Positions 8,515-33,654 of a stretch of DNA of 64,000 bases are shown here, piece after piece. Source of the stretch: Candidatus Binatia bacterium (GTDB lineage Bacteria; Desulfobacterota; Binatia; Bin18); contig OY761159.2 of the NCBI GenBank assembly GCA_963664395.2, positions 2,368,001 to 2,432,000 of the forward strand, in the 5' to 3' direction. How positions within the stretch are numbered: the first letter of the stretch is position 1; each line of letters opens with the position of its first letter. A program made the position numbers and the translations under genes. A model generated the notes under the pieces. That model made no database searches. It was not told where the DNA came from and saw only the letters and a list, made by a program, of their open reading frames with translations.

Positions 8515-8740
8515 AAAATCCGCCTGTCCTCAATATACGGTAAACTCCATAGCGGTTGCACTCGGTCTCGAAAAAAGAGGAGTGTAGACACGAACGGAGA
8601 GAGCGTCAATGAAGCCGGCGCTTGGCGACTGGACTCGCTCAGGGCATAGTAACAAGCATGTTTCAGAAAAGAATAAACGCGCCCTCCAAACAGACAAAGC
8701 TGTTGGCGTGTTTATTCTTTTAACCGGAAGAGGGGATTCC

Positions 8741-9526: not shown

Positions 9527-9533
9527 ATACGCC

Positions 9534-9555
9534 GGGCGGACACGGGGGTCCGCCC
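9534..9555. repeat. GC-rich hairpin (gggcggac-N6-gtccgccc), REP-like or bidirectional terminator
   Basis: Perfect 8-bp inverted repeat between convergent genes. Confidence 0.55.
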
Positions 9556-9561
9556 CTGCAG

Positions 9562-10437: not shown

Positions 10438-10463
10438 GTCTTCCCTCCTTAGACCACGCCGCG

Positions 10464-11336
10464 TTATCTCTCCGGCGCTAACGTTTCAATCGCCCGCTCG
10501 TCCGGTACCATACCACCCTTGGGGCTCAGCGGCATGATACACACGTGTGACGCCCCGGCCTCATAATAGGCAGCAATCCGCTCGCGAATTTTTGCCGCGT
10601 CTCCCCAGGCAATGACCGCGTCCACGAGTCGGTCACTGCCGCCGTTTGCCGTGTCGGCGTCGGTAAAACCGACTTCTTTGAAGCGTTGGACGTAGTGATC
10701 GATTTGGAGATAGGTCTGCATATAACTGCGGGCGGCGGCGCGGGCTGTATCCGCGTCCGACTCCAGCATGACGCCCAACTCGGCACACAGCCACGGTTCC
10801 GGTCCGAGTGCCTTTCGGATTGCCGTAATCTGTTCAATCACCGTGAAATAGGTATGCGTCCCCTGGGTCTGCGTTGCGGCCAGGGCAAGCATCTTGGGCA
10901 TCATCCCGGCCAGCACGACAGGCGGGTCGTTTTGCGGGGCTGGTGCGGCGTACGGTACGGCTTTCATCTTGGTCAGATATTCGCGCGTGAAGCTGAGGGG
11001 CTTGCCATACGGAATGCCGCGCCGGGCGTTGCCCTGCGCATTACTCACGCCCAGGCCGAGCACAAAGCGGTCGCCGTATAACTCGGCGAGCGTCCGGGTG
11101 GCATTGGCAATCGCAATCGGCTCATACGCATAGGTCACCACAATACCGGTGGCGATGACCAGACGCTCGGTTTGGCTCAGCAGATAGGAGGCAAACGAAA
11201 AGCTTTCGCGGCCCAGGGTCTCGGGAAACCACAGGGCGCTATAGCCGAGCTGTTCGACTTTACGGGCGAGCTGGCCGGTCTGTTCGCCGGTGAGGCCATC
11301 CAGAAAGGTAAAAACGCCGGGAGGCTGGAGGTCCAT
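10464..11336 (-). CDS. LLM-class probable F420-dependent oxidoreductase (MSMEG_4141-like)
   Basis: LGYSALW, RFVLGLGVS, GGSDRLVDA and AGASHVC motifs. Confidence 0.85.
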   Translation of the reverse strand: MDLQPPGVFTFLDGLTGEQTGQLARKVEQLGYSALWFPETLGRESFSFASYLLSQTERLVIATGIVVTYAYEPIAIANATRTLAELYGDRFVLGLGVSNAQGNARRGIPYGKPLSFTREYLTKMKAVPYAAPAPQNDPPVVLAGMMPKMLALAATQTQGTHTYFTVIEQITAIRKALGPEPWLCAELGVMLESDADTARAAARSYMQTYLQIDHYVQRFKEVGFTDADTANGGSDRLVDAVIAWGDAAKIRERIAAYYEAGASHVCIMPLSPKGGMVPDERAIETLAPER

Positions 11337-11352
11337 ATAATGCTCCTGTGGA

Positions 11353-12378
11353 CTAGCGAAAGGCCGGAATAACTTTGCTGGTAAACAGCTCCAGATGGGG
11401 CTGAATCCAGCTTGCCGGCAGACCCGGCGGGAGCGTCCACGAATAATAATGCGTCAGCGGGGTCTCTAGGGCATAGTCACGGATCATCTGAATGCAGGTG
11501 TTCACATCTACTACCTGAAACAGGCCCGATTCACGTAATGCCGCTGTATCCGGCACCTTTGGAAACAGGGGCATGCCGGCCTTTTCCGACCACTCGGCAT
11601 AGGCGTTGACCTGATAGCGGACGTGTTCGGCGGCTTCGTTCCAGGTCTTGTCCGGGTCTTCGGACGGAATCAGCCAGAAATAGCCACCCGCGAGGCGAAT
11701 ATCCGTGGTGGACTTCCCGACTTTCTCCAGGGCGGTCACATAGCGTTCATACGCCTCTTTCAGCGGGCCGACGCCGATGTAGCCGTCGCCATATTTTGCC
11801 GCCCGGCGGAGTGCCGGTGGGGTGAAGCCGCCGACCCAAATCGGTGGCCGGGGTTGCTGAATCGGCTCCGGGGTGAGTTTGGCTTTGGTCACCGTGTAAT
11901 ATTTCCCCTCAAACGTCAGGGTTTCGCCCTCCCACAGGCGCCGAATGATTTCGAGGCCCTCATTCGTGCGGGCGCCGCGTTCTTTGCTCGAAACCGCGAA
12001 GCTCTCAAACTCCTCGACTTTATACCCAACGCCCACACCTAGCTCGAACCGGCCACCCGAAATCACGTCCACCGTAGCGGCATCTTCAGCCAGTCGGACC
12101 GGGTTGTGAAAAGGCAGCAGCACCACACTCGTCCCGATATGGATTTTCTTGGTCCGAGAGGCAATCGCGGCGGCAATCGGCATCAGCGCGGGAGAATAGC
12201 CATCTTCGATAAAGTGGTGCTCGGACAGCCAGATATCGTCAAAGCCGTTCTCCTCTCCCCATACGATCTGATCGATGATTTCGTTGTAGAGTTGGTCATA
12301 GGGACGTTTCCAGGCGGGCGGGTTGCGAAAGTCGTACCACATGCCAAAGCGAATTTTCGGATTTCCATTTTCACTCAT
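11353..12378 (-). CDS. LLM-class flavin-dependent oxidoreductase
   Basis: WLSEHH, PVRLAEDAATVDVISGGRFELGVG and PPIWVGG motifs. Confidence 0.9.
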   Translation of the reverse strand: MSENGNPKIRFGMWYDFRNPPAWKRPYDQLYNEIIDQIVWGEENGFDDIWLSEHHFIEDGYSPALMPIAAAIASRTKKIHIGTSVVLLPFHNPVRLAEDAATVDVISGGRFELGVGVGYKVEEFESFAVSSKERGARTNEGLEIIRRLWEGETLTFEGKYYTVTKAKLTPEPIQQPRPPIWVGGFTPPALRRAAKYGDGYIGVGPLKEAYERYVTALEKVGKSTTDIRLAGGYFWLIPSEDPDKTWNEAAEHVRYQVNAYAEWSEKAGMPLFPKVPDTAALRESGLFQVVDVNTCIQMIRDYALETPLTHYYSWTLPPGLPASWIQPHLELFTSKVIPAFR

Positions 12379-12510
12379 CGGACTGTCCTCCTTGTGCAAT
12401 CGACGCTGCATCTTATGGTCTCAGTTTGAAAATGGAAAGCGGACGCTGCTACAATTGATTCGTCAGGTAGCGTCTCTTCGCTCTGGAGAATCCCGGGCCT
12501 TCCCGCCTAG

Positions 12511-12604: not shown

Positions 12605-14017
12605 ATGACGGATCAGATTGGCTCTGAAACAAACCCCCTCCGCGTCGCTATTTTTGGCTCGGGACCGGCCGGATTCTACGCTGTTGGCGAACTGCTTCGG
12701 CAAAAAGATATTGCTGTTCGGGTTGACCTGTTTGACCGCCTGCCGACTCCCTATGGGTTGGTCCGGGGCGGCGTGGCACCGGATCATCAAAAAATTAAAG
12801 CGGTCATTCGACAGTACGAGAAATTTGCCAATCGGCCCGGCTTTCGCTTTTTCGGAAACGTGATCTTTGGTGAAGATCTCCGGCTGGCCGACACCCTGGC
12901 CCACTACCATCAAGTCCTGTTTTCGACCGGAGCGGAATCCGACCGGCAGCTCGGCATTCCGGGGGAAGACCTGGCCGGCAGCGACCCGGCGACGATCTTT
13001 GTCGGCTGGTATAACGGGCACCCTGATTGCCGCGATCTCAACTACGATCTGAGCGAGGTCGAACGTGTCGCCGTAATCGGAAACGGCAATGTGGCCATGG
13101 ATGTCGCCCGTATTCTGGCCCGCTCTATTGAAGAACTCTCAAAAACGGATATCGCCGACTATGCGCTCGGAGCGCTCAAGAAAAGTGCGGTCAAGGAGAT
13201 CTATCTGCTGGGCCGACGGGGGCCGGCGCAAGCGGCTTTTACCAACCCCGAGATTCGGGAACTGGCGAAAATGCCGATCACCGACCTGGTCGTCGAGCCG
13301 AAAGACCTCGAACTCGACGAGGCGAATGCCGAGTTCCTGGCGCAGGCCACAGAGCCGGTGCATCGGCGCAATATGGATATCCTGACGGCCCAGATTCCCA
13401 AGGGCGAGGGAACGGCCCCCAGGAAGATTCGGGCGCGATTTTTTGTTTCTCCGGTCGAACTTTACGGGACCGATCATGTTGAGGGTATGAGGCTCGAAAA
13501 AAACCGTCTGGTGAAGGATGATAGCGGGACGCTGCGCGCGCGCGGAACCGGAGAATACGAGGAGCTGCCGAATATTCATATGGTCTTTCGCTCCATAGGC
13601 TATAAGGGCCATCCGCTGAAAGACGTTCCGTTTGACGAGCGCGCCGGGATTATTCCGAATCAAACCGGTCGGATCATCGACCCGGAAACACAGGCGCCTA
13701 TTGAGCGGCTGTATGTTGCCGGCTGGATCAAGCGTGGGCCGTCTGGAGTGGTGGGTACGAATAAGCCGGACTCGATTGAAACCGTCGGGCTCATGCTGGA
13801 AGACCTGCAACAGGGTAAAGTGCCCAATACTATCCACGCCAGCGAAGAGGCAATTTCTGCTCTGCTGGCGGAGAAGGGTGTCCGCTACGTCTCTTTTGCT
13901 GACTGGAAATATCTGGATCAGATAGAAGTCGAGAACGGGAAAAAAGTGGGCAAGCCGCGTGAGAAGATGACGACCGTCGCGGAGATGCTGACCGCACTCG
14001 ACGCCAGAGGGGCATAG
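12605..14017 (+). CDS. fprA: ferredoxin--NADP+ reductase (FprA/adrenodoxin reductase type)
   Basis: GSGPAG, GLVRGGVAPDH, FVGWYNGHP, GNGNVAMD and GWIKRGPSG motifs. Confidence 0.92.
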   Translation: MTDQIGSETNPLRVAIFGSGPAGFYAVGELLRQKDIAVRVDLFDRLPTPYGLVRGGVAPDHQKIKAVIRQYEKFANRPGFRFFGNVIFGEDLRLADTLAHYHQVLFSTGAESDRQLGIPGEDLAGSDPATIFVGWYNGHPDCRDLNYDLSEVERVAVIGNGNVAMDVARILARSIEELSKTDIADYALGALKKSAVKEIYLLGRRGPAQAAFTNPEIRELAKMPITDLVVEPKDLELDEANAEFLAQATEPVHRRNMDILTAQIPKGEGTAPRKIRARFFVSPVELYGTDHVEGMRLEKNRLVKDDSGTLRARGTGEYEELPNIHMVFRSIGYKGHPLKDVPFDERAGIIPNQTGRIIDPETQAPIERLYVAGWIKRGPSGVVGTNKPDSIETVGLMLEDLQQGKVPNTIHASEEAISALLAEKGVRYVSFADWKYLDQIEVENGKKVGKPREKMTTVAEMLTALDARGA

Positions 14018-14057: not shown

Positions 14058-15035
14058 ATGAAAGCTATTCGTATACACGAGTTTGGTGATCCGGAGGTGT
14101 TGCAGCTCGAAGAGGTCGCGGACCTGACCCCTGGGGCGGGTCAGGTCGTGGTGCGCATGCACGCGGTCGGCGTCAATCCGGTTGAGACCTATATTCGGTC
14201 CGGCATCTATCCCAAACCGCCCACGCCGTTCACGCCTGGTTCGGACGGGGCCGGTGTGGTCGAGGCTGTGGGCGAGGGGGTAGACCGGGTTGCCGTGGGC
14301 GACCGGGTGTATCTGGCCGGTTCTCTCAGCGGCACGTATGCCGAACAGGCGTTGTGCAAACAGGAGCAGGTGCATCCGCTGGGCGAGCAGGCGTCGTTCG
14401 CCCAAGGAGCTGCGGTTTTTGTGCCCTATGCTACTGCCTATCAGGCACTCTTCCACTGTGGTCATGCCGCACCTGGCGAAACGCTTTTTGTACATGGGGC
14501 CAGTGGTGGGGTAGGCATCGCCGGGGTACAGCTCGGCCGGGCCGCCGGCATGACGGTGATCGGAACCGCGAGTACGGAACGCGGGCGTCGGCTCGTGTCC
14601 GAACAAGGCGCGCAGCATGTTCTCGATCATAGTGCCGTGTCGTATCTGGAAGAGGTGAAGACCCTGACGGGTGAGCGGGGCGTTGATGTTATTTTGGAGA
14701 TGCTGGCCAACGTCAATCTCGCCAAGGATATCGACCTGCTCGCCATGCGCGGACGGGTGGTTGTCATCGGCAATCGGGGCGAGAAGAACCAGGGCACGAT
14801 CGAGATCAATCCCCGGGCGGCCATGATGCGGGACGCCGCCATCATCGGCATGACCTTACGCAACGCCACGCCGCAGGATCATGTTCGTATCCACTCAGCC
14901 CTTGTGGCCGGTCTGGCAAACGGCACGCTGCGGCCCGTAATCGGACAGGAACTCCCTCTGGCCGAAGCCGCCCAGGCCCACCGCGCCGTAAGCGGGACAG
15001 GCAAAGCCTACGGGAAGGTGGTGCTGATACCGTAG
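14058..15035 (+). CDS. qor: NADPH:quinone reductase (zeta-crystallin family)
   Basis: GVNPVETYIRSG, HGASGGVG and GKVVL motifs. Confidence 0.88.
   Translation: MKAIRIHEFGDPEVLQLEEVADLTPGAGQVVVRMHAVGVNPVETYIRSGIYPKPPTPFTPGSDGAGVVEAVGEGVDRVAVGDRVYLAGSLSGTYAEQALCKQEQVHPLGEQASFAQGAAVFVPYATAYQALFHCGHAAPGETLFVHGASGGVGIAGVQLGRAAGMTVIGTASTERGRRLVSEQGAQHVLDHSAVSYLEEVKTLTGERGVDVILEMLANVNLAKDIDLLAMRGRVVVIGNRGEKNQGTIEINPRAAMMRDAAIIGMTLRNATPQDHVRIHSALVAGLANGTLRPVIGQELPLAEAAQAHRAVSGTGKAYGKVVLIP
14972..15035 (+). repeat. direct repeat copy 1 (64 bp, 3' end of qor)
   Basis: 61/64 identical to 15847-15910 by manual alignment. Confidence 0.95.
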
Positions 15036-15151
15036 AGCGGCGCCTCATCTTTCCCATCCGTCGCCTCACTAGCTGGCTAACGACACCCTCAATGACAGCC
15101 TGAAACGGAGAATTTCAGGGATGACCATATAGGCTTGCCCTAGGCGAATTT

Positions 15152-15174
15152 GCTATATACCCTGTGTATATAGC
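15152..15174. promoter_or_regulatory. putative VapBC autoregulatory operator
   Basis: Perfect inverted repeat GCTATATAC-N5-GTATATAGC just upstream of the vapB RBS. Confidence 0.7.
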
Positions 15175-15191
15175 TCAGGAGGGTGTTTTCA

Positions 15192-15425
15192 ATGCCTATT
15201 GGTTCTGTATTTGTTAATAACCGTACCCAGGCGGTCCGGTTACCCGCCGATACTCGTTTTCCGGACGAAGTGAAACAAGTCAATGTTCGCGTTGTCGGGA
15301 AGGATAGGGTGTTATCTCCCGTGGATAGCGCATGGGACAGCTTCTTTTTCTCTGAAGAGCGTGTGAGCGATGATTTTCTGGAAGAACGGGCGTCCCACGA
15401 GCAAGCTGAGCGGGAAGCCTTTTGA
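15192..15425 (+). CDS. vapB: VapB/VagC antitoxin (AbrB fold)
   Basis: VFVNNRTQAVRLP motif; AGGAGG RBS; stop overlaps the vapC start. Confidence 0.92.
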   Translation: MPIGSVFVNNRTQAVRLPADTRFPDEVKQVNVRVVGKDRVLSPVDSAWDSFFFSEERVSDDFLEERASHEQAEREAF

Positions 15426-15829
15426 TGTTGAAATACATGCTCGATACCAATATTGCCATTTATGTTATCAAGCGCCGCCCGATAGACGCCCTGGATGCCT
15501 TTAACCGGCACGCCGGCCAGTTGTGTATCAGCTCAATCACGCTGGCTGAGTTGATGCACGGCGTAGAAAAAAGTGCCAGACCCGATCACAACCTGCGGCA
15601 GGTTGAAGACTTTGTTTCCCGTTTGGTTGTGCTTGAGTATGGGCATAAGGCGGCTGCCCATTACGGAGATATCCGGGCAGCGCTGGAACGGAAGGGGAGG
15701 CCCATCGGCGTAAACGATTTACATATAGCGGGTCACTCTCGAAGCGAAGGATTAACCCTGGTCACCAATAATCTGAAGGAGTTTGAGCGGGTGGAATGCC
15801 TGCGGCTGGAGAATTGGCTTTCATCTTGA
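15425..15829 (+). CDS. vapC: VapC PIN-domain toxin
   Basis: YMLDTNI, ITLAEL, IGVNDLHIAGH and LVTNNLKEF motifs. Confidence 0.95.
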   Translation: MLKYMLDTNIAIYVIKRRPIDALDAFNRHAGQLCISSITLAELMHGVEKSARPDHNLRQVEDFVSRLVVLEYGHKAAAHYGDIRAALERKGRPIGVNDLHIAGHSRSEGLTLVTNNLKEFERVECLRLENWLSS

Positions 15830-15846
15830 GGATAAAAAATCCAAGT

Positions 15847-15910
15847 CCAGGCCCACCGCGCCGTAAGCGGGGCGGGCAAAGCCTACGGGAAGGTGGTGCT
15901 GACACCGTAG
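15847..15910 (+). repeat. direct repeat copy 2 (duplicated qor 3' end)
   Basis: 61/64 identical to 14972-15035, including the TAG stop. Confidence 0.95.
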
Positions 15911-15935
15911 CGCTACGCCCCTTTCTACTCAGGCT

Positions 15936-17414
15936 CTACCGGCTTACTTTTATCAGACGATAACCCTGCGGCGGCTTTGGGTTGTCTGCCTTGTCTACCG
16001 TCCAGTGCGGGGGCAGGGCCGGCAGGGGCGGTGGCGTGTCACTACAGCCTGAGTCGCTGCCGTCGATACGCCTATCAAAGTCATTGTCGATCCCGTCGGT
16101 GCAAGCAGTCGATGAGGCAACAGACTCGGGGTCGGGGCGCGACAGAGCGTTGCCCCACTCCTCAGGGATGCTCTCCCACAGGTGATCGAAAAAGGATTCG
16201 AAGCTTGTAGTCAATTGGGGTGACTTGAGCACGAGCGTATTCTCGTCGTTCTCGAATTCTCCAGCCCTGGTCCAATTCATCGACCCGACCACAACTGCAC
16301 GTCCGTCGATAGCCGCAGCCTTCATATGCATCTTGCCGCCCCAGTTCTCGACTTTGACGGGAATGCCTGCCGTGCGCAGCAACTCGTGCTTGGAATACTC
16401 ATTCCGGGCAGAGGTCGCGTCAACGATGACCCGTATGTCAACGCCTCGGCCGTGCGCTGCGATCAGTTCCGCGGTCACGAACTTGTTGGTCAGATAGAAC
16501 ACGGCCAAGTCAATGCGCTGCCGAGCACCGGCAATGAGTGTCTGTACGCCTTTACGCATGGCCTTGTCCTGCGGTGAGAACCAGACTTCGACCTGAGTGT
16601 CGTTCAGTTCCAGACGATCTACGCCGTTGCCCGTTTTCAACTGGTGATAGCGGTCGGCCCACATCTGCTCAAACTCTTCAGTATACACATCGGCGAGTTG
16701 GGTCGAGTCGATTACAGCCGCAACGTTGGCGTTATAGCCGCCCGTGCCGGAGTCCGACAGGTTGCACGAGCCGGTCCAGACCCAGCGCCCGTCCACGATG
16801 AAAAACTTGTTGTGCATGATCCGGTTGGTCGTGCTTTCATCGAACGGTTCCCGACCGGCGTGTGCCGCCACGAGCCAGCGATCACCCAAGTCGTAGGCCA
16901 GGCATTGTAGCGGCCCCTTGAAGCCTTCCGGGCGGGGACAGGAGGGCTTCCGAGGTTTCCAGTCGTTTCGTTGGTCCAGGATCGTTTCGGCGTCGAAATC
17001 GTTGCGGATATTCTTGAGCCGGCGGACCCATAGATCGGTGGACGTATAATAATTCCCGCCGTCTCGCTGACGATCTACTACGCCGCGCACGGCCACCCCG
17101 CGTTCTTGGGCGGCAACCAGGGCTTCCAGAAGTTGTGTTTGCTTGCGCATCCCATACACCGCAAAGTCGATGGAGCTTTGCGCACCTTGGATCAGTTCCA
17201 GTAAGCGAACACAAATAGGGGCCTCGCAGCGGTCACCGGGAGTTGCGAACCGAAGTGGGTCAGTAAACAGCAATTCGACCGGTTGCTTATCTGCATGAAG
17301 CGGCCGCTCCGGCGTGCATGCGGCCCAGACTCACAGGGGCATAATCGCGGCGAGGCACGTGAATCGGACTATACAGCGCAAGCCAATCCTTGAATTCTGT
17401 TCGTGCAGTCTCAT
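15936..17414 (-). CDS. phospholipase D-family protein (two HKD motifs), probable lipoprotein; in-frame TGA in the signal region (pseudogene or sequence error)
   Basis: HNKFFIVD and HMKAAAID motifs; in-frame upstream ATG 17414 gives MRLH...LAAIMPL*VWAAC with TGA at 17331-17333. Confidence 0.8.
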
Positions 17415-17634
17415 GGCGCTCTTCCAAAATCGTCTCTTCAGCGAAGAGGAAGAAATAGACGCTGTTGGCGACGAAGAGTCAAGCACGTAAGGGGCGCGCG
17501 ACGACTACAGAAGAGTGGGGTCTCCTATCGGAAAGCCCAGCGACCGGTGTAGTCTAAAAACGGTGTGAAATATCCATCAAGCTGTGGTGCTGCCCTGATA
17601 GCGGCTTACCGTTGGAATGAATTTGAGCAATTTT

Positions 17635-18225
17635 TTAGGTCTTTGCTACATGTCTAGGTCTGTGGCCTTCAATACGCATAACTTTACCTTCACGTATGAG
17701 CAAACCCAATATACTGTATGATAGGTAATCTTTTTGATTGCCTTGATAATCACTCCGTAAGCCAAGCAGGCTTGCCGCATCAGAATTTAGAATACCAGCC
17801 GGATTCGCTTTTGCTAATTCATATACTGATGATTTCAGCAACCCAAGACCAAGTTGGGCTCTTTCAACGGCCCCCTGGGGCACAACAACACCAGGGCGTT
17901 CTTTTCCCGCCGTACCACTCGGTACAACAGCGTTCGTTAAAATACCTTCTGTTTCCTCGGTCCCGAACGCTGAGATAAGCTCAGATTCCAATTTTAAAGC
18001 CTGAATTTCTGTTAGATCATCTATCAGAATATCGACCAATGGCTCCATTCCAGAATTTCTTATTCTCTTAATCCGGGTGTACTTTCTTGTATTGTCTGGT
18101 TTTACCAGATGATCAAATGCTCTACTTCCCGTTCCTTTCCCGATATAGAATGGCTGCGCAGGATTCGAGCTTGGATCTTTTAGAGCATAAACATAATAGA
18201 AATTTGTAGCCATAATCTTTCCCAT
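17635..18225 (-). CDS. GIY-YIG nuclease-domain protein
   Basis: YYVYAL...FYIGKG..SR...H...E...LTN pattern; visibly AT-richer than the flanks. Confidence 0.8.
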   Translation of the reverse strand: MGKIMATNFYYVYALKDPSSNPAQPFYIGKGTGSRAFDHLVKPDNTRKYTRIKRIRNSGMEPLVDILIDDLTEIQALKLESELISAFGTEETEGILTNAVVPSGTAGKERPGVVVPQGAVERAQLGLGLLKSSVYELAKANPAGILNSDAASLLGLRSDYQGNQKDYLSYSILGLLIREGKVMRIEGHRPRHVAKT

Positions 18226-18399
18226 TCAGCCTGCAAGCTTTGTGTCACCTGTAACAATATCCTGGGCGTCCGTCAGGCATATGGCAAACAGCGTGACAAG
18301 CGAATCAGTGCAGTCTTCATACTGATCCGCGGTTTTTGACTGCGTTGGTCATGAATCGATCGGGAGCGGAGGGGTGGGCGGATAATACCGGGCGGAAGG

Positions 18400-19686
18400 T
18401 TACTGGCCCATGCGTCCAAAATCAATCTGGATATTGGAATAAACCTCGCTCAGGCTGGAGATGTGCTCCCAGGGGACGCCTAAGCCTTCGCGGCTATTCC
18501 CCATCATGATGGGTTGCAGATCTTCGACGGCAAGCGGCTGGGCATCGGTGAAGACGAGTACGCCGGCCGCGGTAATCTGGGGCTGGTCGAACTCGATGAA
18601 TCGATCCGTCTCCCAGATAGCATCCTGCATCGTCAGCATCAGCATCTTTGTTTCGCCCGGTTGGAGCAGTCCGTCGGGCTCCACCTGCATCGCCGGAATC
18701 TCGCTTTGCGTATCCGGATAGAGATCGTGTGTGGCGGGATTAATGAAAGACAAATAACTGGTCGTGAACTTGCGTAAGACCACCGCTTGATCCGAGGTGT
18801 TGGTCGCTTCAACCTGCATACTCATGGACCGCTTGGTTGTGTTATAGCGCAACTCTTTGACCGTAGTCTGGACGGCACTCGGATGGGACAGACTGGACAG
18901 GTCCCACATTCTGGCCGTCTGGTGTGGAATGATCGGCGGGCGCCCCGAGTTCGTGACCCACAGCCCTCCGACAATCAGGACAACCAAAACCACCCCGAAA
19001 ATAAGAGACGTTCGACGATCAGCGGGAGTGATTTGTTCCTCATCAACGCCTTTCAACAGGAGCGCGTAACGGACGAGCAGCGGCCGTCTGGCCCAATAGC
19101 CGAGCCAGGCGAGCCCAAGAATCCCGAACACGACATGCCAGCCGACAACCCGTCCAAACCCGTAGTGCTCCAGGTCTATGGTCTCACCGGTTGCCGGAAT
19201 CTGTACGGTATAGGACGGCGGGGCGTCACCCGGAACAACTGTGATCCACTTGGCCGGACCAACCAGCCCGCCCGTACCGGACAGATTGACCATTGGATGG
19301 ATATGATAACGGCCCGGCTCTCGCGCTTGGAGGATCATCTTAAAATCGTAGATCCCTCCTAACTCGACATTAAACGCGTTCTGGATAAAGCGATCATTCA
19401 CCCAGCGTTCGCGTACGGCGAGTTTCGGGCCCGGAACCAGGATACCGATCCACGCCAACTCCGGCGTGGTCAGTATCCGCGGCCAGGAATTCATCACTCT
19501 GAACTTGCCGGTGACGGTCATGGTCTCGTTAACGGCGAGTCGCTCGTGCGAGAACTCCACATTAAAAAATGAGACCCCGCGCATGCGGACAAAGGGTTCG
19601 AGGTTGTGCTCACCATGAGCCTGGGCAACGGGCGCATAGACAAACGAAGCCGCAGCAAGGCCGAGGGCCAGGATGACAGAAATCAA
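18400..19686 (-). CDS. pmoB: copper membrane monooxygenase subunit B (PmoB/AmoB family); true start may be 19748 via a frameshift
   Basis: Signal peptide ending AQA-HGE; YHIHP (CuB HxH); two TM helices between two beta-rich domains. Symbol denotes family, not substrate. Confidence 0.92.
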   Translation of the reverse strand: MISVILALGLAAASFVYAPVAQAHGEHNLEPFVRMRGVSFFNVEFSHERLAVNETMTVTGKFRVMNSWPRILTTPELAWIGILVPGPKLAVRERWVNDRFIQNAFNVELGGIYDFKMILQAREPGRYHIHPMVNLSGTGGLVGPAKWITVVPGDAPPSYTVQIPATGETIDLEHYGFGRVVGWHVVFGILGLAWLGYWARRPLLVRYALLLKGVDEEQITPADRRTSLIFGVVLVVLIVGGLWVTNSGRPPIIPHQTARMWDLSSLSHPSAVQTTVKELRYNTTKRSMSMQVEATNTSDQAVVLRKFTTSYLSFINPATHDLYPDTQSEIPAMQVEPDGLLQPGETKMLMLTMQDAIWETDRFIEFDQPQITAAGVLVFTDAQPLAVEDLQPIMMGNSREGLGVPWEHISSLSEVYSNIQIDFGRMGQ

Positions 19687-19770
19687 AACACCCCCCTCCC
19701 CGGTCCTCGGTTCGGCCGCCCGACCCGGCCAGCAATACTCCTGTTCATCCTTTAATCCAGTAAATCCTGG

Positions 19771-20514
19771 TCAGGTTTGGCGCAGGACTTTCTGCAGCGG
19801 CATAACGCCGAGCGCTTTTCCTATCCCGAGGCCAACCCAATACATGATGGTGCAGGTAATGCCGGCCATTAACACGCTGATCCAGATACGCTGACCCAGG
19901 AAGGCTTGCAGCGTGCCTTCATCAATCCGTCGCAAGTATTCCGGTGTTTGAGGGCGGATGAAGTAATAGCCCATCAGATCGGCAATGGTAAATGTCTTGC
20001 CAAAAAGAGTAACCGGCTGGAGGAAGGGCATGAGCATCAGCCAGTTGACGGGATAAAAGAGAAACCCCCATAAAAATCCGCCAAACAGACTCGTCACCAA
20101 ATAGCTGCGTGACCAAAAGAGAATCAGGTCAAGCGCCAGCGCCATCGGAATGGTCGTCGCCGGCCAGACAAAATTGAGCGGATAATACTCCAAGCCGTAA
20201 AAGCTGAATATCCGACTCAGCCAGGCCCCAATCAAAACGAACACCGCGGTAAACGTGGCACCCAGCGGCAGGCGCAGATAGTACCAGGCCAGATAGTGGC
20301 CCACCGCGGTCACCAACATGGCGGCGCTCGGGCCGGCGATCGGCCACCACAGCTTGTCTTTCCAATCAACCCAGAAATCCCAGTCGCCCATATAGAGCAT
20401 GCGACTGACGTGGGGGATGACGGTGAAAAAGCCGACCAGGGCCAGGAGCAGCATGACATCAAAGACCTTGGCCATCTTGTGATGCCCAAGCGCGGCAAGT
20501 TCTTCGGCCTTCAT
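19771..20514 (-). CDS. pmoA: copper membrane monooxygenase subunit A (PmoA/AmoA family)
   Basis: GDWDFWVDWKD, RLPLGAT, YPLNFVWP, LFYPVNW and TPEYLRRIDEGTL motifs. Confidence 0.95.
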   Translation of the reverse strand: MKAEELAALGHHKMAKVFDVMLLLALVGFFTVIPHVSRMLYMGDWDFWVDWKDKLWWPIAGPSAAMLVTAVGHYLAWYYLRLPLGATFTAVFVLIGAWLSRIFSFYGLEYYPLNFVWPATTIPMALALDLILFWSRSYLVTSLFGGFLWGFLFYPVNWLMLMPFLQPVTLFGKTFTIADLMGYYFIRPQTPEYLRRIDEGTLQAFLGQRIWISVLMAGITCTIMYWVGLGIGKALGVMPLQKVLRQT

Positions 20515-20559
20515 GATTCCCAGCTCCTCCCCGAGGGCAGTGCGTGGTCCGCCGGGGGG

Positions 20560-21366
20560 CTAGTTCGCCTCGGTTGATGCCATTGCTCCCAGGTTTTCAA
20601 AAATGCGCGGCACGGTCTTAAACAGCAGCGCAAACCCGGCAAAAAAGAAATATGTCGCCCAGGCAAACGGAAAATGGTAGGGCTGCACAAACAGTTCTTC
20701 GGTAATCCAGCTTGAGTGTCCCAGCTCATTAAACGCCACATTGGCGAACAGGAACCAGCCGCCGGCCGGAAACAGCAGATAGCAGATAGGGATGCCTTTG
20801 CCCCCTTCACCGACATACAGATGGTGTAAACGGTTATAGGCGTACCAGGAGCTGACGCCGGTCATGATGAGCAACATGGGAAAGGTATAGAAGAAGAGGG
20901 GAATGTGGCTGGGCGTAAAGGCCGTATCGCGCACCACGATTTGATGCCACGAGGCGTCTTGCTCGGCAAAATAGCTGACCCCAAAGCCGAACATGGCTGC
21001 CACCGCAACCGTGGCCCACAGCTTGCCGATGTGATTCAGCTCGTGCTCGGGGTCGATGCGCCCCAGTTCTTTTTTCTGAACGGCGCAGAGCGAACAGGGT
21101 TTGCGATAGGACGTAAAGCCGATGATGGCGGTAGCTATGAGGACTGCCCATTCGACATACAAGAGGCCCAGCCAATACGTCGCAAATTCGGGTGTCGTCG
21201 CATCCAGACCAACCGGGAACCACCATTTGCCCTGCCACAGTCTGATGAGAACCAACGACAGCAGCCCCAGGCCGGCGCCGATGAGCAGAAAACGCATGAA
21301 CGGCATCTCGCCGTGTGCGGGCTGCACCGCTCGCACTTCGGCCGTTTCGACCACTGGGCTTTCCAT
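20560..21366 (-). CDS. pmoC: copper membrane monooxygenase subunit C (PmoC/AmoC family)
   Basis: EQDASWHQ..VRDTAFTPSH (CuC D/H/H) and NELGH...EELF..PYH (CuD N/H/H). Confidence 0.95.
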   Translation of the reverse strand: MESPVVETAEVRAVQPAHGEMPFMRFLLIGAGLGLLSLVLIRLWQGKWWFPVGLDATTPEFATYWLGLLYVEWAVLIATAIIGFTSYRKPCSLCAVQKKELGRIDPEHELNHIGKLWATVAVAAMFGFGVSYFAEQDASWHQIVVRDTAFTPSHIPLFFYTFPMLLIMTGVSSWYAYNRLHHLYVGEGGKGIPICYLLFPAGGWFLFANVAFNELGHSSWITEELFVQPYHFPFAWATYFFFAGFALLFKTVPRIFENLGAMASTEAN

Positions 21367-21555
21367 TGTTGCTACCTATGTGGCTGCCATCGGAGGTCCC
21401 TCCCTGTAAGTTGCCGCTCAGCCCCAAGGCTCCTGTACATGATCCCTGTATCGGACGACCCCGGAGCGATAATAATGCTATGTATGGAATATCAACCCTG
21501 TACCACATATTCTCCAAAATGTGCAAACGCTGAAACGCCAGATTGAGAAAAGAAA

Positions 21556-21942
21556 ATGGCAAGCAAAGGCCGGCCTTTTCGGACCGTCTCTTTTGAGGGT
21601 TTTGAGATTCTGGTGGGGAAAGGGGATGTGCAGAACGACCGGCTGACCTTCGACATTGCAGAGCCTGAAGACTTTTGGCTGCATGTGGTCAACGTCCCCG
21701 GCAGCCATGTTGTGGTACGCAATCCCGACCAACTCGCCGAACTGCCGCCCGACGTATTGCAGCACGCGGCCCGGCTTGCGGCCTGGCATTCCAAGGCGCG
21801 CGGCAGCCGGGGCAAAGTGGAAGTCCATATCTGCCGAGCCGCGGACGTATCCCAGCCGTCCGATTTTCCGCCCGGCAAGGTGCTGTTGCGCCGCTGGCAG
21901 AGTCTCAGAGTCTATTCGCTTGAGCCTCCCGACGAGTCGTAA
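21556..21942 (+). CDS. NFACT-R RNA-binding domain protein (DUF814-like)
   Basis: ILVGK...NDRLT, DFWLHV..PGSHVV and AARLAAWHSKAR motifs. Confidence 0.85.
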   Translation: MASKGRPFRTVSFEGFEILVGKGDVQNDRLTFDIAEPEDFWLHVVNVPGSHVVVRNPDQLAELPPDVLQHAARLAAWHSKARGSRGKVEVHICRAADVSQPSDFPPGKVLLRRWQSLRVYSLEPPDES

Positions 21943-22054
21943 TGGTTGTTCAACTCTACCTCGAAGGCGTCCCCTGCCCGCCAGGTGAAACATATTCGTC
22001 AGCCGCGCGATACACGAATGCTATACTGTCCGGCGCGGTCGCCCCTGGAGAAGT

Positions 22055-22186
22055 TTACCCCTGCGGGACACGAACACTCATGGCCTCGTCGACCGCAGCT
22101 ACGACGGCTTCGGCCAGGGGTTCGTCGGCCCCGGCCTCCCTGAGCGCCTTGACGGCTTTGTTGGTGTCGAATGCGAGCGCAGGCAT
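22055..22186 (-). pseudogene. 43-aa fragment resembling the N-terminus of DUF1640/CCDC90-like coiled-coil proteins
   Basis: Manual translation MPALAFDTNKAVKALREAGADEPLAEAVVAAV...; below the ORF-track cutoff. Confidence 0.5.
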
Positions 22187-22319
22187 GTGCTTCCTGTTAC
22201 TTCAAGCGGTCCACCCCGCCAATGGTGAGTGTCTACCCCCGTACCAATCATTTCGGAAATGAACTTGTCGGCTGACGCTCGGCTTAACCGTCATTCGGGA
22301 CTACAGAGATCGGCACCTC

Positions 22320-23909
22320 TCATTCTCCCAGGAAATGTTGGATGAGTGTCCAGGCTGCTTCCTCCAGAGCGTCGACTCCGTTAGAGTTCGTGGTGAGGAG
22401 TACCGCAAAGTCCTTGTTTGGGGCAACATACACACGAGCGTGCGAATAATGAGGGTACCACCCCCCCACATGGTGTAGTAATGGTCCGTCCGCCCAGCTT
22501 CGCTCCGCCCCAAACCATCCCAGGGCGTAATTGGCTCCCAAATAGATACTCAGGTCACGGTTAAAGTTTTCTGATGCCCCGGGTTCGTCCTCCACGGGGG
22601 TATGCAGTTTTCGGAATGTCTCGGGTTTGAGAAAATGACTTTCTCCTCGGGCGCCGGCGAGATGCAGGGCAACAAATTTCCCCCAATCCTCAATCGAACT
22701 GTGAACGAGCGCAGCCGGTCCAACTGGAGACCTAATTTGCTCAATAGCAACAGTGCTTGGTTCAACCGGCGTACGCCCAATATGCCCGTGAGGTTGGGAG
22801 TTTGTCTCGAGGTTTTCTGGCGGGCCAAAGTCTGCCGACGCCATCCCAAGCGGGACAAAGAGCCGTTCGGCCATGAGTTCTTCCCACGACTTGCCAGTGG
22901 CGGCCTCGGCTATCGCTCCGGCGATAACATAGCCGGCGACCTCTGAATATTCCCAGCGTGACCCTGGCGGGACTTCTGGGGCTTGTTGTAGCACCAACTC
23001 AACCATCTGAAGGCGTTGCTCAATTATCGTCCCAGTCAGAGGATGCTCAGGATCGATCAGATCCTCAGCCGGCAACCGAGGCAGGCTGGAGCGATGGGCG
23101 AGCAACTGCTCAACGGTCACGGCCTGCCACGCAGCATCAATTGTACCGAGCAGGTCGGGGAATGCTTCGCCGATAGTCGTCTGCCAGGAGAGGACTCCCT
23201 CTTCCACAAGCAGGGCAATCAGCGTGGCGGTCATGGCTTTGCTACATGAAAAAAGCCGCCAGCGGTCCTGCACCGTCACCCGCTCGGGGGAGCCGACACG
23301 TCGCACCCCAACAGCGCCCAGACCAATCAGTTCCCCAGCGTGGACAATGCCGCCCGCCAGGGCTGGAAGCTCGTACTTCTGACGAATCGGCTCAAGCAAG
23401 TCATTCAGGTTCTCTGGCCCAACCCCCTCCCTGGTCATCTCCAACTCCAGATGTTGGGTACTCTGATTCCACGCAAACGTTGAGGTCTCGCCTGTTGCGG
23501 GGAAATCCGGGACACTAACCTGTGCGCTCGCCCCTCTCACGAACGGCTCCCCCAGGGTCACCACTGTAAACGTACTCCGGGCAAACTCTACGCCATTATC
23601 GTAGGCCACCGCGGTGTGTTCGCCATCGTCCAGATTCCCCCAATTCCAGATGGCCACAAAGCCGACATCTGCGTCGCCACAGGCACCTGCATCAAGGACA
23701 TCAGTCCGCTCGTTGCCATATAGCAAGGGAATCGGGTCCCCACCGTAAAAACGGATCGTGAGATCTCCGTTGGCCTTACACTTCCAGCCTGAGATGACTC
23801 CGATACCTGAGTAGTTTAAGCCGTCGCCAGGATTCTCTAGCGTTGCAGTATGGGCCAGAGACGGAGCCAAGAGAGCGAAGACAATACAGATGCGGATCAG
23901 GGAATACAT
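22320..23909 (-). CDS. secreted serine hydrolase (beta-lactamase/AmpC-like fold) with an uncharacterised N-terminal domain
   Basis: Signal peptide; SCSK (SxxK), LLAHRS, WEYS and YALGW motifs; about 140 extra N-terminal residues. Confidence 0.85.
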   Translation of the reverse strand: MYSLIRICIVFALLAPSLAHTATLENPGDGLNYSGIGVISGWKCKANGDLTIRFYGGDPIPLLYGNERTDVLDAGACGDADVGFVAIWNWGNLDDGEHTAVAYDNGVEFARSTFTVVTLGEPFVRGASAQVSVPDFPATGETSTFAWNQSTQHLELEMTREGVGPENLNDLLEPIRQKYELPALAGGIVHAGELIGLGAVGVRRVGSPERVTVQDRWRLFSCSKAMTATLIALLVEEGVLSWQTTIGEAFPDLLGTIDAAWQAVTVEQLLAHRSSLPRLPAEDLIDPEHPLTGTIIEQRLQMVELVLQQAPEVPPGSRWEYSEVAGYVIAGAIAEAATGKSWEELMAERLFVPLGMASADFGPPENLETNSQPHGHIGRTPVEPSTVAIEQIRSPVGPAALVHSSIEDWGKFVALHLAGARGESHFLKPETFRKLHTPVEDEPGASENFNRDLSIYLGANYALGWFGAERSWADGPLLHHVGGWYPHYSHARVYVAPNKDFAVLLTTNSNGVDALEEAAWTLIQHFLGE

Positions 23910-24006
23910 AAAGACTTCCTCGTAGTACTGATAGAGAAACGGCTTACTCTACCCAAAGATATAAGCTCACTATTTATACGGGGTTATTCGGATCATTCCA
24001 GCCTTG

Positions 24007-24026
24007 TACCTTTGTACATAAAGGTA
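24007..24026. promoter_or_regulatory. putative operator overlapping the XRE start codon
   Basis: TACCTTT-N6-AAAGGTA inverted repeat; no RBS before ATG 24026 (possibly leaderless). Confidence 0.45.
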
Positions 24027-24343
24027 TGGACAGAAAAATTCAGGTCGGACGGCGGGTCAGAAATCTGCGTAAACTCCGCAAACTCTCTCAGGAAGCGCTG
24101 GCTGATAGAGTGTCAACGAGCGCCAAATATCTCAGCCGGATCGAGATAGGAAACGAGAACCCTACCATAGACCTGCTGTTTCGGCTGGCGGATGGCTTGA
24201 GTGTCGAACCCTACGAAATGTTGTGTTTTGAAGAAGGTGAGCCGGTACGCCAATTACGGACAAGAGCGGCGAAGCTCATAGACGAAGTTCCAGACAAGGA
24301 CATCGCGCGGGTTGTCGGACTGCTCGAAGCCGTACTGCACTAA
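24026..24343 (+). CDS. XRE-family HTH transcriptional regulator
   Basis: LRKLRKLSQEALA...YLSRIEIG..NPT motif. Confidence 0.9.
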   Translation: MDRKIQVGRRVRNLRKLRKLSQEALADRVSTSAKYLSRIEIGNENPTIDLLFRLADGLSVEPYEMLCFEEGEPVRQLRTRAAKLIDEVPDKDIARVVGLLEAVLH

Positions 24344-24408
24344 GAGCGGAATCCGAAGCTCTGAAAAATCTAGCCCATTTTACGATAGGCTCTCGCCACG
24401 CAGGGGGC

Positions 24409-24486
24409 CCCGTCATGCCGGACGTGATCCGGCATCCAGAGGGCAGGGGGCCGAGAGCCTGGATTCCGGCCTGCGCCGGAATGACG
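24409..24486. repeat. REP-like double-hairpin element (same family as 331-405, opposite orientation)
   Basis: cgtcatgccggacgtgatccggcatcca...tggattccggcctgcgccggaatgacg. Confidence 0.8.
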
Positions 24487-24541
24487 TTGCTGGTGGATAC
24501 ACAGCATCGTAAAGTGCCCTAGCCGTATAGATTACCCCCGT

Positions 24542-27500
24542 TCAATCCCCGAAGGCTTCCTCTTCTTTTATTGGGGCTGGGACCGGAGGCGATTCTTGCG
24601 CCGGCTTACGGCGAAAAATTCGGCGTGGCAGGTTTCTCAGGGCCGGCATCGTGCGCCCTAGCCACGATTCGAGATCATCGAACAACGAATAGGCGACCGG
24701 GGTCACCAGCAAGGTGATCAATAGGCATAAACTCTGTCCGCCAATCACAACGACCGCAATGCCACGATGACTTTCCGCGGCCGGGCCCTGGCCGACCAGA
24801 ATCGGAATCATGCCGGCCACGAGGGCTAAGGTCGTCATCAGAATCGGGCGCAGGCGTTCTTTGTTGGCCCGTAGAATGGCCTCGTCGCGCGGCAGACCTT
24901 CGGCCCGCAAATTGATCGTATGGTCAATTTGCAGGATCGAATTTTTCTTCACAATCCCGAATAACAAGAGCATACCCAGAATCGCGAACAAACCTAAGTG
25001 CTGGCCGGCGATATACAGCGCCAGCAAGGCAAAGGGCACGGCCAGCGGCAAGGACAGCATGATCGTAATGGGGTGGAGAAAACTTTCAAACTGCGCGGCC
25101 AGGACCATATACATGCCGATGAGAGACAACAGAAAAGCAAACTGAAAGCTTTCCATCATCTCTTCAAACATCTTGCCCATGCCGGTCACCCCGGTGGTAT
25201 AGCCCAGCGGTAGGCCCATTTTCTCGACCTCGGCATCAATGTCTGCAATCGCGTCACCGAGCGCCTTGTCTTTGGCCAGGTTGCCGGTAACCGTAATCTG
25301 GCGCTGTCGGTCCTGGCGGTCAATTTGCACCGGACCAGTGCCTGGAATCAGATCGACAACATTACTTAATATGACCTGCCCAACAGACACCGACGGGATC
25401 GCGACCTGTTGAATCACCTCTGGTCGATTCCGACTCTCAGGCGTCAGGCGCAGGCGCACATCGTATAATTCATCGCCTTCGCGATAGGTCGTAATTTTCT
25501 CACCCGCGATCATAATACGCAGGGTCGAAGCAATATCCGCCGCCTCAATGCCGAGATCGGAAGATTTCTGTCGGTTCAGATGGACTTGGAGTTCGGGGCT
25601 CCCACCCTCGAACGTCGAGTCCACATCTCGCAGACCCGGCATGCGCTGTACGCGGGTTTTCAAATCTTCGGAATATCGTTGCAGCGTCAGCAGGTCCGGG
25701 CCGCGCAAGTTGTAAGAGACATCGACATTCTGGATCCCTCCACCACTGACCGGCAGTATCTGGTCTACACTAATGCGGAGGTTGGGAAAGCCTTGTATCT
25801 TCTCACGGGCCAAATCCATGATCTGACTCTGGTGGAGGGTCCGTTCCGAGTAATGCACGAGGGTGACGACAATTTTTGACTTGGTGACCGATTCGCCTAC
25901 GGTTGAACCAATCTCGGTCAGCAGATGGTTCACACCCGGAAGGGGATGAATTTCTTCCTCAATCTGGCGTGTCACGGCTTCAGTTTGGGCCAACGAATAG
26001 CCGGGCGGTGTCTTGATATTGATTTCAAACTCCCCCCGGTCGTCGCTGGCCATCAGGCTGGGGCGGACAAGACCTGCAATAAAAGGGGTAGAAGCAAACA
26101 CGCCCAGGGTGAGGCACACAATCACCCAGCGGTGGCGCATCGACCACTTCAGCATGGCCATATACGAACGATCAATGAGCCGGTAGAAGCGTGACTCGCG
26201 TGAGGAATGGGCCTGACCGGCAGCGTGCCCGTCAAGGTGTTTGGGCAGAAAGCGTGAGCACAGCATGGGCGTGAGGGTAAAGGCGACCAGCAGCGAGACC
26301 ATGATAGAGAACGCCATGGTAAACCCAAAGCTGCTCAGCCACATGCCGATGATCCCCTTGAGAAAGCCCACCGGAATGAAGATGACAACCAGAGACAAGG
26401 TTGTGGCGCTGACGGCCAAGCCGACCTCGGCCGTAGCGGCGCGCGCGGCTTCAAAGGCGTTCATGCCCTTTTCTTCGATATAGCGATAAATATTTTCCAG
26501 TACGACAATCGCGTCATCAATGACAATGCCCACGGCCAAAGTGAGCGCCAGCAGGGTGACACGATTGAGGGAATATCCGGCCGCGGCCAGCAGGGTGTAG
26601 GTCGAGATGATGGAAACCGGAATAGCGATGGCGGCAATGAGGGTTGAGCGCAGATTGCCGAGAAAGAAATACACAATAATGCTGGCAAACAGCGAGCCCA
26701 GGATGAGGTGCTGCTCGACCTCGTGCACCGAAGCTTTGACAAAATCCGACTGATCGCGCGTCACCAACGCTTCGACACCCGGCGGCAGGAGTTGCTGAAC
26801 ATCAACCAGGCGCTCCTTGACCGCTTCGACCGCGGCTACCGTGTTCGACCCGGACTGTTTGCGAATGATAAGAGACACGGCGTTCTTGCCGTCGTAGCGG
26901 GACAATGAGCGGGGCTCTTCAACGCCGTCTTCGACGCGGCCAATATCGGCCAGGGTGATAGGCACGCCGTCATTGGTGGCGACCACGATATCTTCGAACT
27001 CGCGGACCGATTTGACCCGTCCGAGCGTCCGCAGGATGGTCTCGCCGCTCTCTTGGGTGATGCGGCCGCCCGGAAATTCGACATTCTGCTTGGCCAGGGC
27101 CTCGGCGACGGTCCGGATTGCCAGCCCGTAGGCCTTGAGACGGTCGGGATCAACCAGGATATGAATTTCCCGTTTCCGCCCGCCTATTACATCGATGGCG
27201 CCGACTCCGGTCACCGACTCCAGCGGCTCTTTGACCTGATTCTCTGCGATTTCGGTCAGTTCTTTCAGACCGCGAAAGCCTGAGACGGTAATGGTGGCAA
27301 TAGGCGTGGCATCAATGTCGAACTTCTCGACAATCGGCGGGTCGGCATCTTCGGGCAGGTCGGCCAGGACCGTGCCCACCTTGTCGCGAACTTCCTGAGC
27401 GGCAATGCCGAGGTCTTTCTCCAGGACGAACTGCACAATAACTTGGGATAACCCCTCACGGGTGACTGACCGCAGCTCATCAATCCCGCTGACCGTGTTG

Positions 27501-32600: not shown

Positions 32601-32742
32601 CCAGCACCACCGCTCCGTAGTCGCTGCGCTCTGCACTCGGCGTATCGGGCGCGATGTCGGGGCCGTGGGCGATGCTCCAGCCAAGGCTTTCGAGCCAGGC
32701 CAGGGCGGCCTCTTCGACAGTGGATTCGGTGAAGATTGTCAC
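29602..32742 (-). CDS. hsdR: type I restriction endonuclease subunit R
   Basis: RPD...IELKN nuclease motif; [14 protein letters not shown] and QAIARVNR; probable GTG start at 32742. Confidence 0.95.
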
Positions 32743-32747
32743 TGTAG

Positions 32748-33251: not shown

Positions 33252-33255
33252 CAGG

Positions 33256-33645: not shown

Positions 33646-33654
33646 GACTCAACC

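Follow-up and report, generated by a model that had tools for sequence, protein, structure and literature searches.

A divergent copper membrane monooxygenase operon (xmoCAB) kept beside a second one in a Candidatus Binatia bacterium

Copper membrane monooxygenases (CuMMOs) have previously been described in Binatota. In the excerpts of the literature available to us, Murphy et al. 2021 report them from two orders, Bin18 and Binatales, in which the genes are arranged as CAB or as CAxB/CAxxB and two genomes have two copies each, assign the Binatota sequences to two clades, named TUSC cluster 2 and Actinobacteria/SAR324 cluster, and mention that Nocardioides CF8, with an enzyme of the hydrocarbon monooxygenase (HMO) type, oxidizes C2-C4 compounds but not methane (PMC8262859). 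Transcripts of pmoA have been reported from a sponge Binatota symbiont, the paralogue being unstated in the portion seen (PMC9999580). Binatota are further listed among the HMO-bearing phyla in a 2025 paper (PMC12533140), Binatia clades are set with hydrocarbon monooxygenases and described as lacking methanotroph modules in a 2026 preprint (10.64898/2026.02.02.703227), and pmoB/pmoC are described in a deep-sea sponge Binatia metagenome-assembled genome (MAG) in another (10.64898/2026.03.04.709506). Here we describe xmoCAB, an operon in a stretch of 64,000 nucleotides (“the window”) from a Candidatus Binatia bacterium of the Bin18 lineage (GCA_963664395.2, contig OY761159.2, positions 2,368,001 to 2,432,000). 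An initial annotation, made from the letters of the window alone, had proposed a divergent, stand-alone CuMMO operon of unknown substrate. Its novelty is lower than that annotation held, because Binatota CuMMOs, two per genome in some, and transcription of pmoA in a sponge symbiont had already been published. Passages that single out this paralogue as a clade of its own were not found in the literature text available in part, where the tree figures, including that of the “Actinobacteria/SAR324 cluster”, may include the clade.

Profile matches and conserved metal ligands place XmoCAB in the CuMMO superfamily. The three subunit families lie contiguously on one strand in the order C-A-B, with gaps of 45 nt between xmoC and xmoA and 84 nt between xmoA and xmoB (Table 1). 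Matches to Pfam AmoC on XmoC (150.6 bits, profile positions 17-238 of 245), AMO on XmoA (207.5 bits, positions 8-230 of 238) and Monooxygenase_B on XmoB (331.3 bits, positions 1-364 of 380) were all far above the gathering scores. All nine ligands of the CuB, CuC and CuD sites were present by alignment to solved chains of particulate methane monooxygenase (pMMO). The CuB ligands in XmoB are His24, aligned with the first residue of mature PmoB (11ll, 3chx), and the HxH pair His128 and His130. In XmoC, alignment to PmoC of PDB 6cxh/7s4l identified Asp137, His141 and His154 as CuC ligands and Asn213, His217 and His231 as CuD ligands. Among relatives, the CuB ligands did not vary in any of the 12 whose xmoB is unsplit, nor did those of CuC and CuD in any of the 13. 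XmoB begins with a typical signal peptide (residues 1-23, …VAQA/HGEH) that ends in AQA, followed by two hydrophobic helices (177-195 and 221-249), as in PmoB. A tail of about 45 residues extends beyond residue 383, the last position aligned to PmoB, and is conserved within the clade. XmoA, which was aligned to PmoA of PDB 1yew/6cxh, carries the motifs PHVSRM and WKDKLWW. The gene order, the ligands and the two XmoA motifs had all been read correctly in the initial annotation.

XmoA and XmoC did not reach the cut-offs of the NCBIfam pmo/amo equivalogs compared (TIGR03078-80, NF041557, NF041640 and NF041641). XmoA scored 223.5 bits against a cut-off of 290 (AmoA_BACT) and 207.4 bits against one of 318, and XmoC scored 159.5 bits (cut-off 319) and 142.3 bits (cut-off 281). 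XmoB was likewise below TIGR03079, with 270 bits for a cut-off of 395.

Close relatives of the operon were few. A scan of one genome per species gave 577 CuMMO-A loci, and among the best 80 of these, 13 (L003-L015) had an XmoA 80-94% identical to that of the window. In a word-indexed search with XmoA, matches at 91, 80 and 75% were followed by four metagenome proteins of full length at 53-57% and, below these, by identities of 46% or less; outside these groups, no identity exceeded about 47%. The exhaustive HMMER search of 1.84 billion cluster representatives yielded 23 clusters at E <= 1e-30, with the best full-length match outside the own cluster at 45%. A phylum-wide genome search (2 of 401 genomes) was too sparse and was replaced by searches at the class and family levels. 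In the class-level sample, an AMO-family match was present in 88 of 401 genomes, a count that includes the unpublished genome G595, on which no result rests. Within the family, 31 of 55 genomes encoded an XmoA with at least 80% identity: 26 of 28 in the genus of the window, five of eight in a second genus and none of 19 in eight other genera; no family member fell between 80% and 46%. A 1.7-kb metagenome contig from a scan aimed at the sister group at 53-57% proved to be a clade member (82% XmoA). The XmoCAB lineage is a deep branch, narrow in its distribution, within an enzyme family that is already known.

The phylogenetic trees agree with this isolation. In a quick IQ-TREE analysis of 103 XmoA rows, supported by the Shimodaira-Hasegawa-like approximate likelihood ratio test (SH-aLRT) only, the window grouped with the 13 loci (97), the four metagenome proteins were sister to them (100), and the stem measured 1.1 substitutions per site. 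The clade emerged from a polytomy with actinobacterial HMO, two single rows and a large Binatia/Chloroflexota/Dormibacterota clade; pXMO, Haliea-like and USC-like proteobacterial sequences lay on the opposite side, so that the window clade is on the HMO side. A concatenated C+A+B tree of 41 rows, chosen from 94 loci with CuMMO matches plus the window, again gave a stem of 1.1 (100). Sequences of Binataceae and soil MAGs fell into two other clades, with the window clade separate (support 100); mapping the published clade names onto the tree suggests that it lies outside both “TUSC” and “putative pmoA Binatales”. Both trees, which were built without SAR324, Nocardioides CF8, canonical gamma or alpha pmoCAB, ammonia-oxidizing bacterial (AOB) or ammonia-oxidizing archaeal (AOA) sequences, placed the operon in no characterized clade. 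Together with the missed cut-offs of A and C, the stem of about 1.1 substitutions and the full-length matches of no more than 45% outside the own cluster, this bears out the proposed divergence of the operon from every characterized clade.

Among the named systems, the HmoCAB of Mycolicibacterium chubuense NBB4 (plasmid pMYCCH.01, L093) is 44.5%, 32.5% and 42.2% identical to the window A, B and C subunits, respectively. It has the most similar named XmoC and one of the most similar XmoA, and lies on the same side of the XmoA tree. The C-A-B order and the three Pfam families are shared with actinobacterial HmoCAB, also with that of Mycobacterium dioxanotrophicus (L095), and XmoC is closest to actinobacterial HMO C subunits in general (41-43% vs 29-40% for others). 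The NBB4 locus has a gene for an N,N-dimethyl-4-nitrosoaniline (NDMA)-dependent methanol dehydrogenase nearby, whereas the window locus has no adjacent dehydrogenase of that kind. With the pMMO of Methylococcus capsulatus Bath and Methylotuvimicrobium alcaliphilum 20Z (PDB 3rgb/7s4h and 6cxh/7s4l, respectively), the window operon has in common all CuB, CuC and CuD ligands, the mature N-terminal His of B, the subunit lengths and the C-A-B order. It differs from pMMO in that A and C are below the TIGR03080/TIGR03078 cut-offs and no pmoD is adjacent. In XmoB, Ser39 and Arg63 take the place of the bis-His site of Bath PmoB (His48 and His72), and HIHAM of Bath PmoA is HVSRM in the window XmoA. The pXMO operon pxmABC of Methylomagnum ishizawai (plasmid pRS11DPr1, L094) is 38%, 36% and 35% identical in A, B and C. 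It is likewise a divergent extra CuMMO kept beside a main one, but has the order A-B-C and belongs to a different clade. The CuMMO of ethylene-using Haliea is 41% identical.

A further CuMMO cluster was found in the same genome (L106; Table 1). The assembly (5.04 Mb in 14 contigs, 95.9% complete) holds exactly two AMO and two AmoC matches in a profile search, one set in each operon. The order in the second cluster is a 190-aa unknown gene, xmoC2, xmoA2, a 119-aa gene, xmoB2, another 190-aa unknown gene, a multicopper oxidase, a Cu-oxidase-like gene and a pyrroloquinoline quinone (PQQ) dehydrogenase, with Fe-ADH upstream on the opposite strand. The 119-aa gene between A and B gave no Pfam or NCBIfam match. 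Copy 2, as we call this operon, belongs to the same enzyme family and has the same ligand-bearing subunits, but shares only 38% (A), 34% (B) and 32% (C) identity with the window copy, which has neither the extra gene nor the oxidase and dehydrogenase downstream. The copy 2 type is widespread in Binatia, Chloroflexota, Dormibacterota and some Actinomycetota, and copy 2 falls in the large clade of these groups in the XmoA tree, one of the two that take up the Binataceae and soil-MAG sequences. Proteins 60-80% identical to those of copy 2 are numerous in Actinomycetota, Dormibacterota, Acidobacteria-labelled and other MAGs, and genes of its type occur in nine of the ten genera of the family. Of the 31 genomes with the window type, 28 also have copy 2, and the remaining three are fragmented assemblies. 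The genome also encodes four full-length PQQ dehydrogenases of the methanol/ethanol family above the TIGR03075 cut-off, namely the one in the second cluster and three further ones; one of the four is xoxF-like and is followed by a MoxJ-like/cytochrome c gene. Genes for pqqC and a glutathione-dependent formaldehyde dehydrogenase were present, and Fae was not found in the 95.9% complete genome. The multihaem HAO-type family (PF13447) had no match in the genome; the control likewise matched nowhere, so this negative is weak. The initial annotation had called the operon stand-alone, which is true at the locus and not of the genome, and its description of a heterotroph-like genome is contradicted by the second cluster, the xoxF-like gene, pqqC and the formaldehyde dehydrogenase.

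The operon is under purifying selection. Pairwise dN/dS against relatives was 0.07-0.20 for xmoC, 0.045-0.125 for xmoA and 0.06-0.17 for xmoB, where two distant pairs were saturated and the split xmoB of L010 was left out. No internal stop codon was found in any of the 31 clade members of the family. The split xmoB consists of two open reading frames (ORFs) of 213 and 266 aa (L010 6744-8125) and may be due to a frameshift or a sequencing error. Decay of the operon into a relic was rejected on the dN/dS values and the intact genes.

The operon is apparently also transcribed. Twelve RNA-labelled runs from five studies (P1, P2, P4, P5 and P8) contain part of the stretch, and the contigs of four runs from three studies, one run being labelled sponge metagenome, were compared with the locus. 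At 95-99% identity, contigs were found over xmoC and xmoA and over part of xmoB, running across both the C-A and the A-B junction. One of them (X5 record 28) spans 20492-21496 and thus reaches 130 nt upstream of the xmoC start. The regions 16670-18337 and 22091-23341 had no RNA-contig cover; they are strain-variable, which makes them unusable as a silent control, and their lack of cover is not evidence. In each of the four runs, a GC-rich palindromic element (…GGATTCCGGCCTGCGCCGGAATGAC…) at window 24410-24490 drew RNA contigs to a summed depth of 200-1350, with loose ends on either flank. It has a single exact 25-mer copy in the genome and no Rfam match, and is probably a repeat common to other organisms in the samples.

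The operon is genuine and intact, it represents a deep clade of narrow distribution, and the enzyme is probably active; we regard a functional CuMMO as very likely. By analogy with the solved structures of pMMO and ammonia monooxygenase, C, A and B would assemble as a membrane complex. XmoB would be exported and cleaved after AQA, by which His24 would become the N-terminal CuB ligand together with His128 and His130. XmoC would provide the CuC and CuD sites, at which O2 may be activated and a small hydrophobic substrate hydroxylated, and the alcohol product would be passed to periplasmic PQQ dehydrogenases encoded elsewhere in the genome. We infer a short-chain gaseous hydrocarbon as the substrate, a C2-C4 alkane or alkene being more likely than methane, and ammonia unlikely. 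C2-C4 compounds are preferred over methane because A and C miss the pmo/amo cut-offs, XmoC is nearest to actinobacterial HMO, XmoA is 44.5% identical to HmoA of M. chubuense NBB4, the XmoA tree has the clade on the HMO side, and Nocardioides CF8 has that substrate range. The statement as a whole, that XmoCAB is a working accessory CuMMO and second isoenzyme of this bacterium with a preference for a C2-C4 hydrocarbon, is put forward tentatively and falls a little short of what we would call probable.

Several observations weigh against this proposal. A closed, 100% complete genome of the same genus (G537) has the operon deleted. At the site (L103, G537:C1:459000-478999, 4456-4919), which is syntenic with window 18406-21564, the final 84 codons of xmoB run directly into the initial bases of xmoC and its upstream region. 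The deletion is clean, measures about 2.68 kb and corresponds to window ~18660-21342, so that xmoA is missing entirely, together with most of xmoC and four fifths of xmoB; the upstream stretch 21343-21564, the quinone oxidoreductase and the FNR-like gene are kept. The contigs from RNA libraries are compatible with carry-over of DNA and give neither strand nor level. Methanol and formaldehyde could both be handled by enzymes of the genome, which is compatible with methane as the substrate. The concatenated tree joins the window clade to the proteobacterial pMMO/pXMO side, weakly (SH-aLRT 81, with a backbone support of 15), and an approximately unbiased (AU) test disfavoured an exclusive clade with three actinobacterial HMO operons (p 0.027, log-likelihood difference 14.1). 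XmoB is nearer to proteobacterial B subunits (36-38%) than to HmoB (32.5%), and with 342.6 bits it passes the AmoB_BACT cut-off of 336 by 6.6 bits. Since G537 has deleted it, the operon is dispensable, while being maintained elsewhere. The window clade is an independent deep lineage whose branching relative to actinobacterial HMO and pMMO/pXMO differs between the two trees.

A true pMMO is an unlikely alternative, though one to be taken seriously. The bacterium would then be a methanotroph in which the window copy makes methanol from methane for XoxF-type dehydrogenases, as assumed for sponge Binatota. Retention of all pMMO ligands, best PDB matches to pMMO chains and the weak grouping in the concatenated tree are in line with this, as are the xoxF-like gene with its MoxJ/cytochrome c neighbour, pqqC and the glutathione-dependent formaldehyde dehydrogenase, and in the portion available the published account of sponge Binatota takes their pmoA as methane oxidation (PMC9999580). 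However, the operon is in no verified methane-oxidizing clade, A and C are far below the pmo/amo cut-offs, Fae was not found in the genome, and the excerpted preprint sets the Binatia CuMMO clades with hydrocarbon monooxygenases, without methanotroph modules (10.64898/2026.02.02.703227).

It is rather unlikely that the substrate is instead an unusual volatile from the host or from seawater, for example ethylene, isoprene or a C1 compound with halogen or sulfur. Such a substrate would explain why a very divergent second isoenzyme is kept beside the HMO-like copy in 28 of the 31 carriers, the three exceptions being fragmented, and would fit the long isolated stem with two genera only, the clade-specific motif in the pocket region of XmoA, the XmoB tail and the 41% identity to the CuMMO of ethylene-using Haliea. 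Against these stand the catalytic core, which is the same as in pMMO, and the neighbourhood, where no linked gene indicates such a pathway and the conserved flanks are generic; the idea is pure inference. A related and similarly doubtful view is that of a third Binatia CuMMO lineage, confined to two genera and with close relatives in sponge metatranscriptomes, that would be kept beside an HMO-like enzyme because its substrate differs both from methane and from the C2-C4 alkanes that actinobacterial HMO oxidizes. If this were true, the “pmoA” signal from which methane oxidation by sponge Binatota is deduced would in part stand for a different process.

Less probable still is a condition-specific isoenzyme that acts on the same substrate as copy 2 and differs in its affinity for O2, Cu or the substrate, as has been suggested for pXMO and pMMO2 of methanotrophs, an explanation that can be combined with any of the substrates above. 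The two paralogous operons in 28 of 31 carriers would agree with it, as would the physical linkage of copy 2 only to a multicopper oxidase and a PQQ dehydrogenase and the dispensability of the window copy in G537, but the 34-38% identity between the copies is far more divergence than a kinetic variant needs. An ammonia monooxygenase, or a decaying relic without function, is very improbable, since the narrow pass of XmoB for AmoB_BACT, the deletion in G537 and the split xmoB of L010 are set against A and C far below the AmoA/AmoC cut-offs, the missing multihaem HAO-type match (weak, as the control also matched nowhere), a dN/dS of 0.05-0.2, intact genes in 31 genomes and presence in RNA libraries.

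The two operons bear on the role ascribed to these bacteria. Binatia are cited as possible methane or alkane oxidizers in soils and marine sponges, largely via genes annotated as pmoA, and one group of them carries two very different CuMMO operons, neither of which is in a verified methane-oxidizing clade. Which of the paralogues is expressed, and on what substrate it acts, would decide whether such symbionts can be credited with a methane sink. Widely used primer pairs may fail on the window copy because its A189f-like site has one mismatch, as had been noticed before, and no A682r-like site was found with up to 3 mismatches allowed. With 31 genomes, a natural deletion strain and RNA data, the clade is tractable for heterologous expression.

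Table 1. Features of the xmoCAB locus (window positions) and the second CuMMO cluster of the genome
Feature	Position	Strand	Description
xmoC	20560-21366	minus	268 aa ORF; membrane subunit with CuC and CuD ligands; Pfam AmoC
xmoA	19771-20514	minus	247 aa ORF; membrane subunit, usual marker gene; Pfam AMO
xmoB	18400-19686	minus	428 aa ORF, TTG start; Pfam Monooxygenase_B
Upstream region of xmoC	21367-21555	minus	189 nt, common to the divergent NFACT-R gene; presumed promoter and 5' leader of xmoC
A189f-like primer site GGCGACTGGGATTTCTGG	20371-20388	minus	one mismatch to A189f
NFACT-R (RNA-binding domain)	21556-21942	plus	Pfam NFACT-R_1; divergent neighbour of xmoC
GIY-YIG	17635-18225		Pfam; PD-T4-3-like in PADLOC
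PLD	15936-17273		Pfam; DrmC-type-nuclease-like in PADLOC
PIG3-type NAD(P)H:quinone oxidoreductase	14058-15035	plus	Pfam, NCBIfam; convergent with xmoB
FNR-like flavoprotein	12605-14017	plus	Pfam, NCBIfam; convergent with xmoB
Second CuMMO cluster (L106)	G000:C1:4297152-4305398 (L106 5153-13399)	all co-oriented	C-A-x-B

Shine-Dalgarno (SD)-like G-rich stretches precede xmoA (GGGGAGGAG) and xmoB. A sigma-70 consensus scan upstream of xmoC gave no match, promoter and terminator patterns were no commoner than in shuffled sequences, and a scan of 17000-25000 against Rfam gave no match. The GC content of the operon (0.54-0.57) is similar to that of the surroundings, so a recent horizontal transfer has no compositional sign.

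The initial annotation had named GIY-YIG, PLD and NFACT-R genes as the neighbours of the operon. All three are present, but only NFACT-R belongs to the conserved context. The flanking genes of the 13 related loci are 75-96% identical to those of the window and form a conserved frame: RND (resistance-nodulation-division) pump ... NFACT-R, xmoC-A-B, quinone oxidoreductase and FNR-like gene. NFACT-R lies upstream of xmoC in 12 of the 13, directly adjacent in five and about 3.3 kb away in seven, the quinone oxidoreductase was found in 12 and the FNR-like gene in nine, with the misses at contig or locus ends. These conserved flanks are generic. GIY-YIG, in contrast, was found in one of the 13 loci, a full PLD gene in none and VapB or VapBC in four; GIY-YIG and PLD are thus strain-variable inserts outside the conserved context. 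As had been stated before, pmoD, copCD, hao and methanol dehydrogenase genes are not adjacent: ORF and profile scans of the window found no pmoD, copCD, hao or PQQ dehydrogenase next to xmoCAB.

Several of these flanks vary between strains. The VapBC pair, PLD and GIY-YIG make up a strain-variable island between xmoB and the quinone oxidoreductase (window 15140-18225) that most relatives do not have. The stretch of about 3.3 kb between NFACT-R and xmoC occurs in L004-L008, L011 and L012 (seven of 12 relatives), at about positions 1700-5045 of these loci, and in L009, L013 and L015 NFACT-R adjoins the RND pump. On the other side of NFACT-R, a beta-lactamase-family gene and a helix-turn-helix (HTH) regulator (window 21948-24539) are absent from another strain; RNA contig X3 record 23 connects 21948 with 24539 through 31 different letters. 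The beta-lactamase-family gene has no orthologue in the 13 related loci, the sole match, in L007, being weak (43%).

The rest of the 64-kb window holds luciferase-like monooxygenases, enoyl-CoA hydratases, two type I restriction systems and a nitrile hydratase, and nothing tied to C1 or alkane use. The two type I restriction-modification loci lie at 29602-38461 and 51926-58487, and the first contains a ThsB-like TIR gene, an 8xMP membrane protein and a PIN-domain gene between hsdR and hsdS. An MscS-type channel gene (50667-51873) appears as two overlapping ORFs, the first (50667-51335) with the MS_channel_1st domain and the other (51229-51873) with domains 2 and 3, through a frameshift or a faulty assembly. 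Six luciferase-like (flavin or F420-dependent) monooxygenase genes are located at 5162-12411, 41873-42787 and 49057-50037, and the nitrile hydratase alpha/beta pair at 48101-49036.

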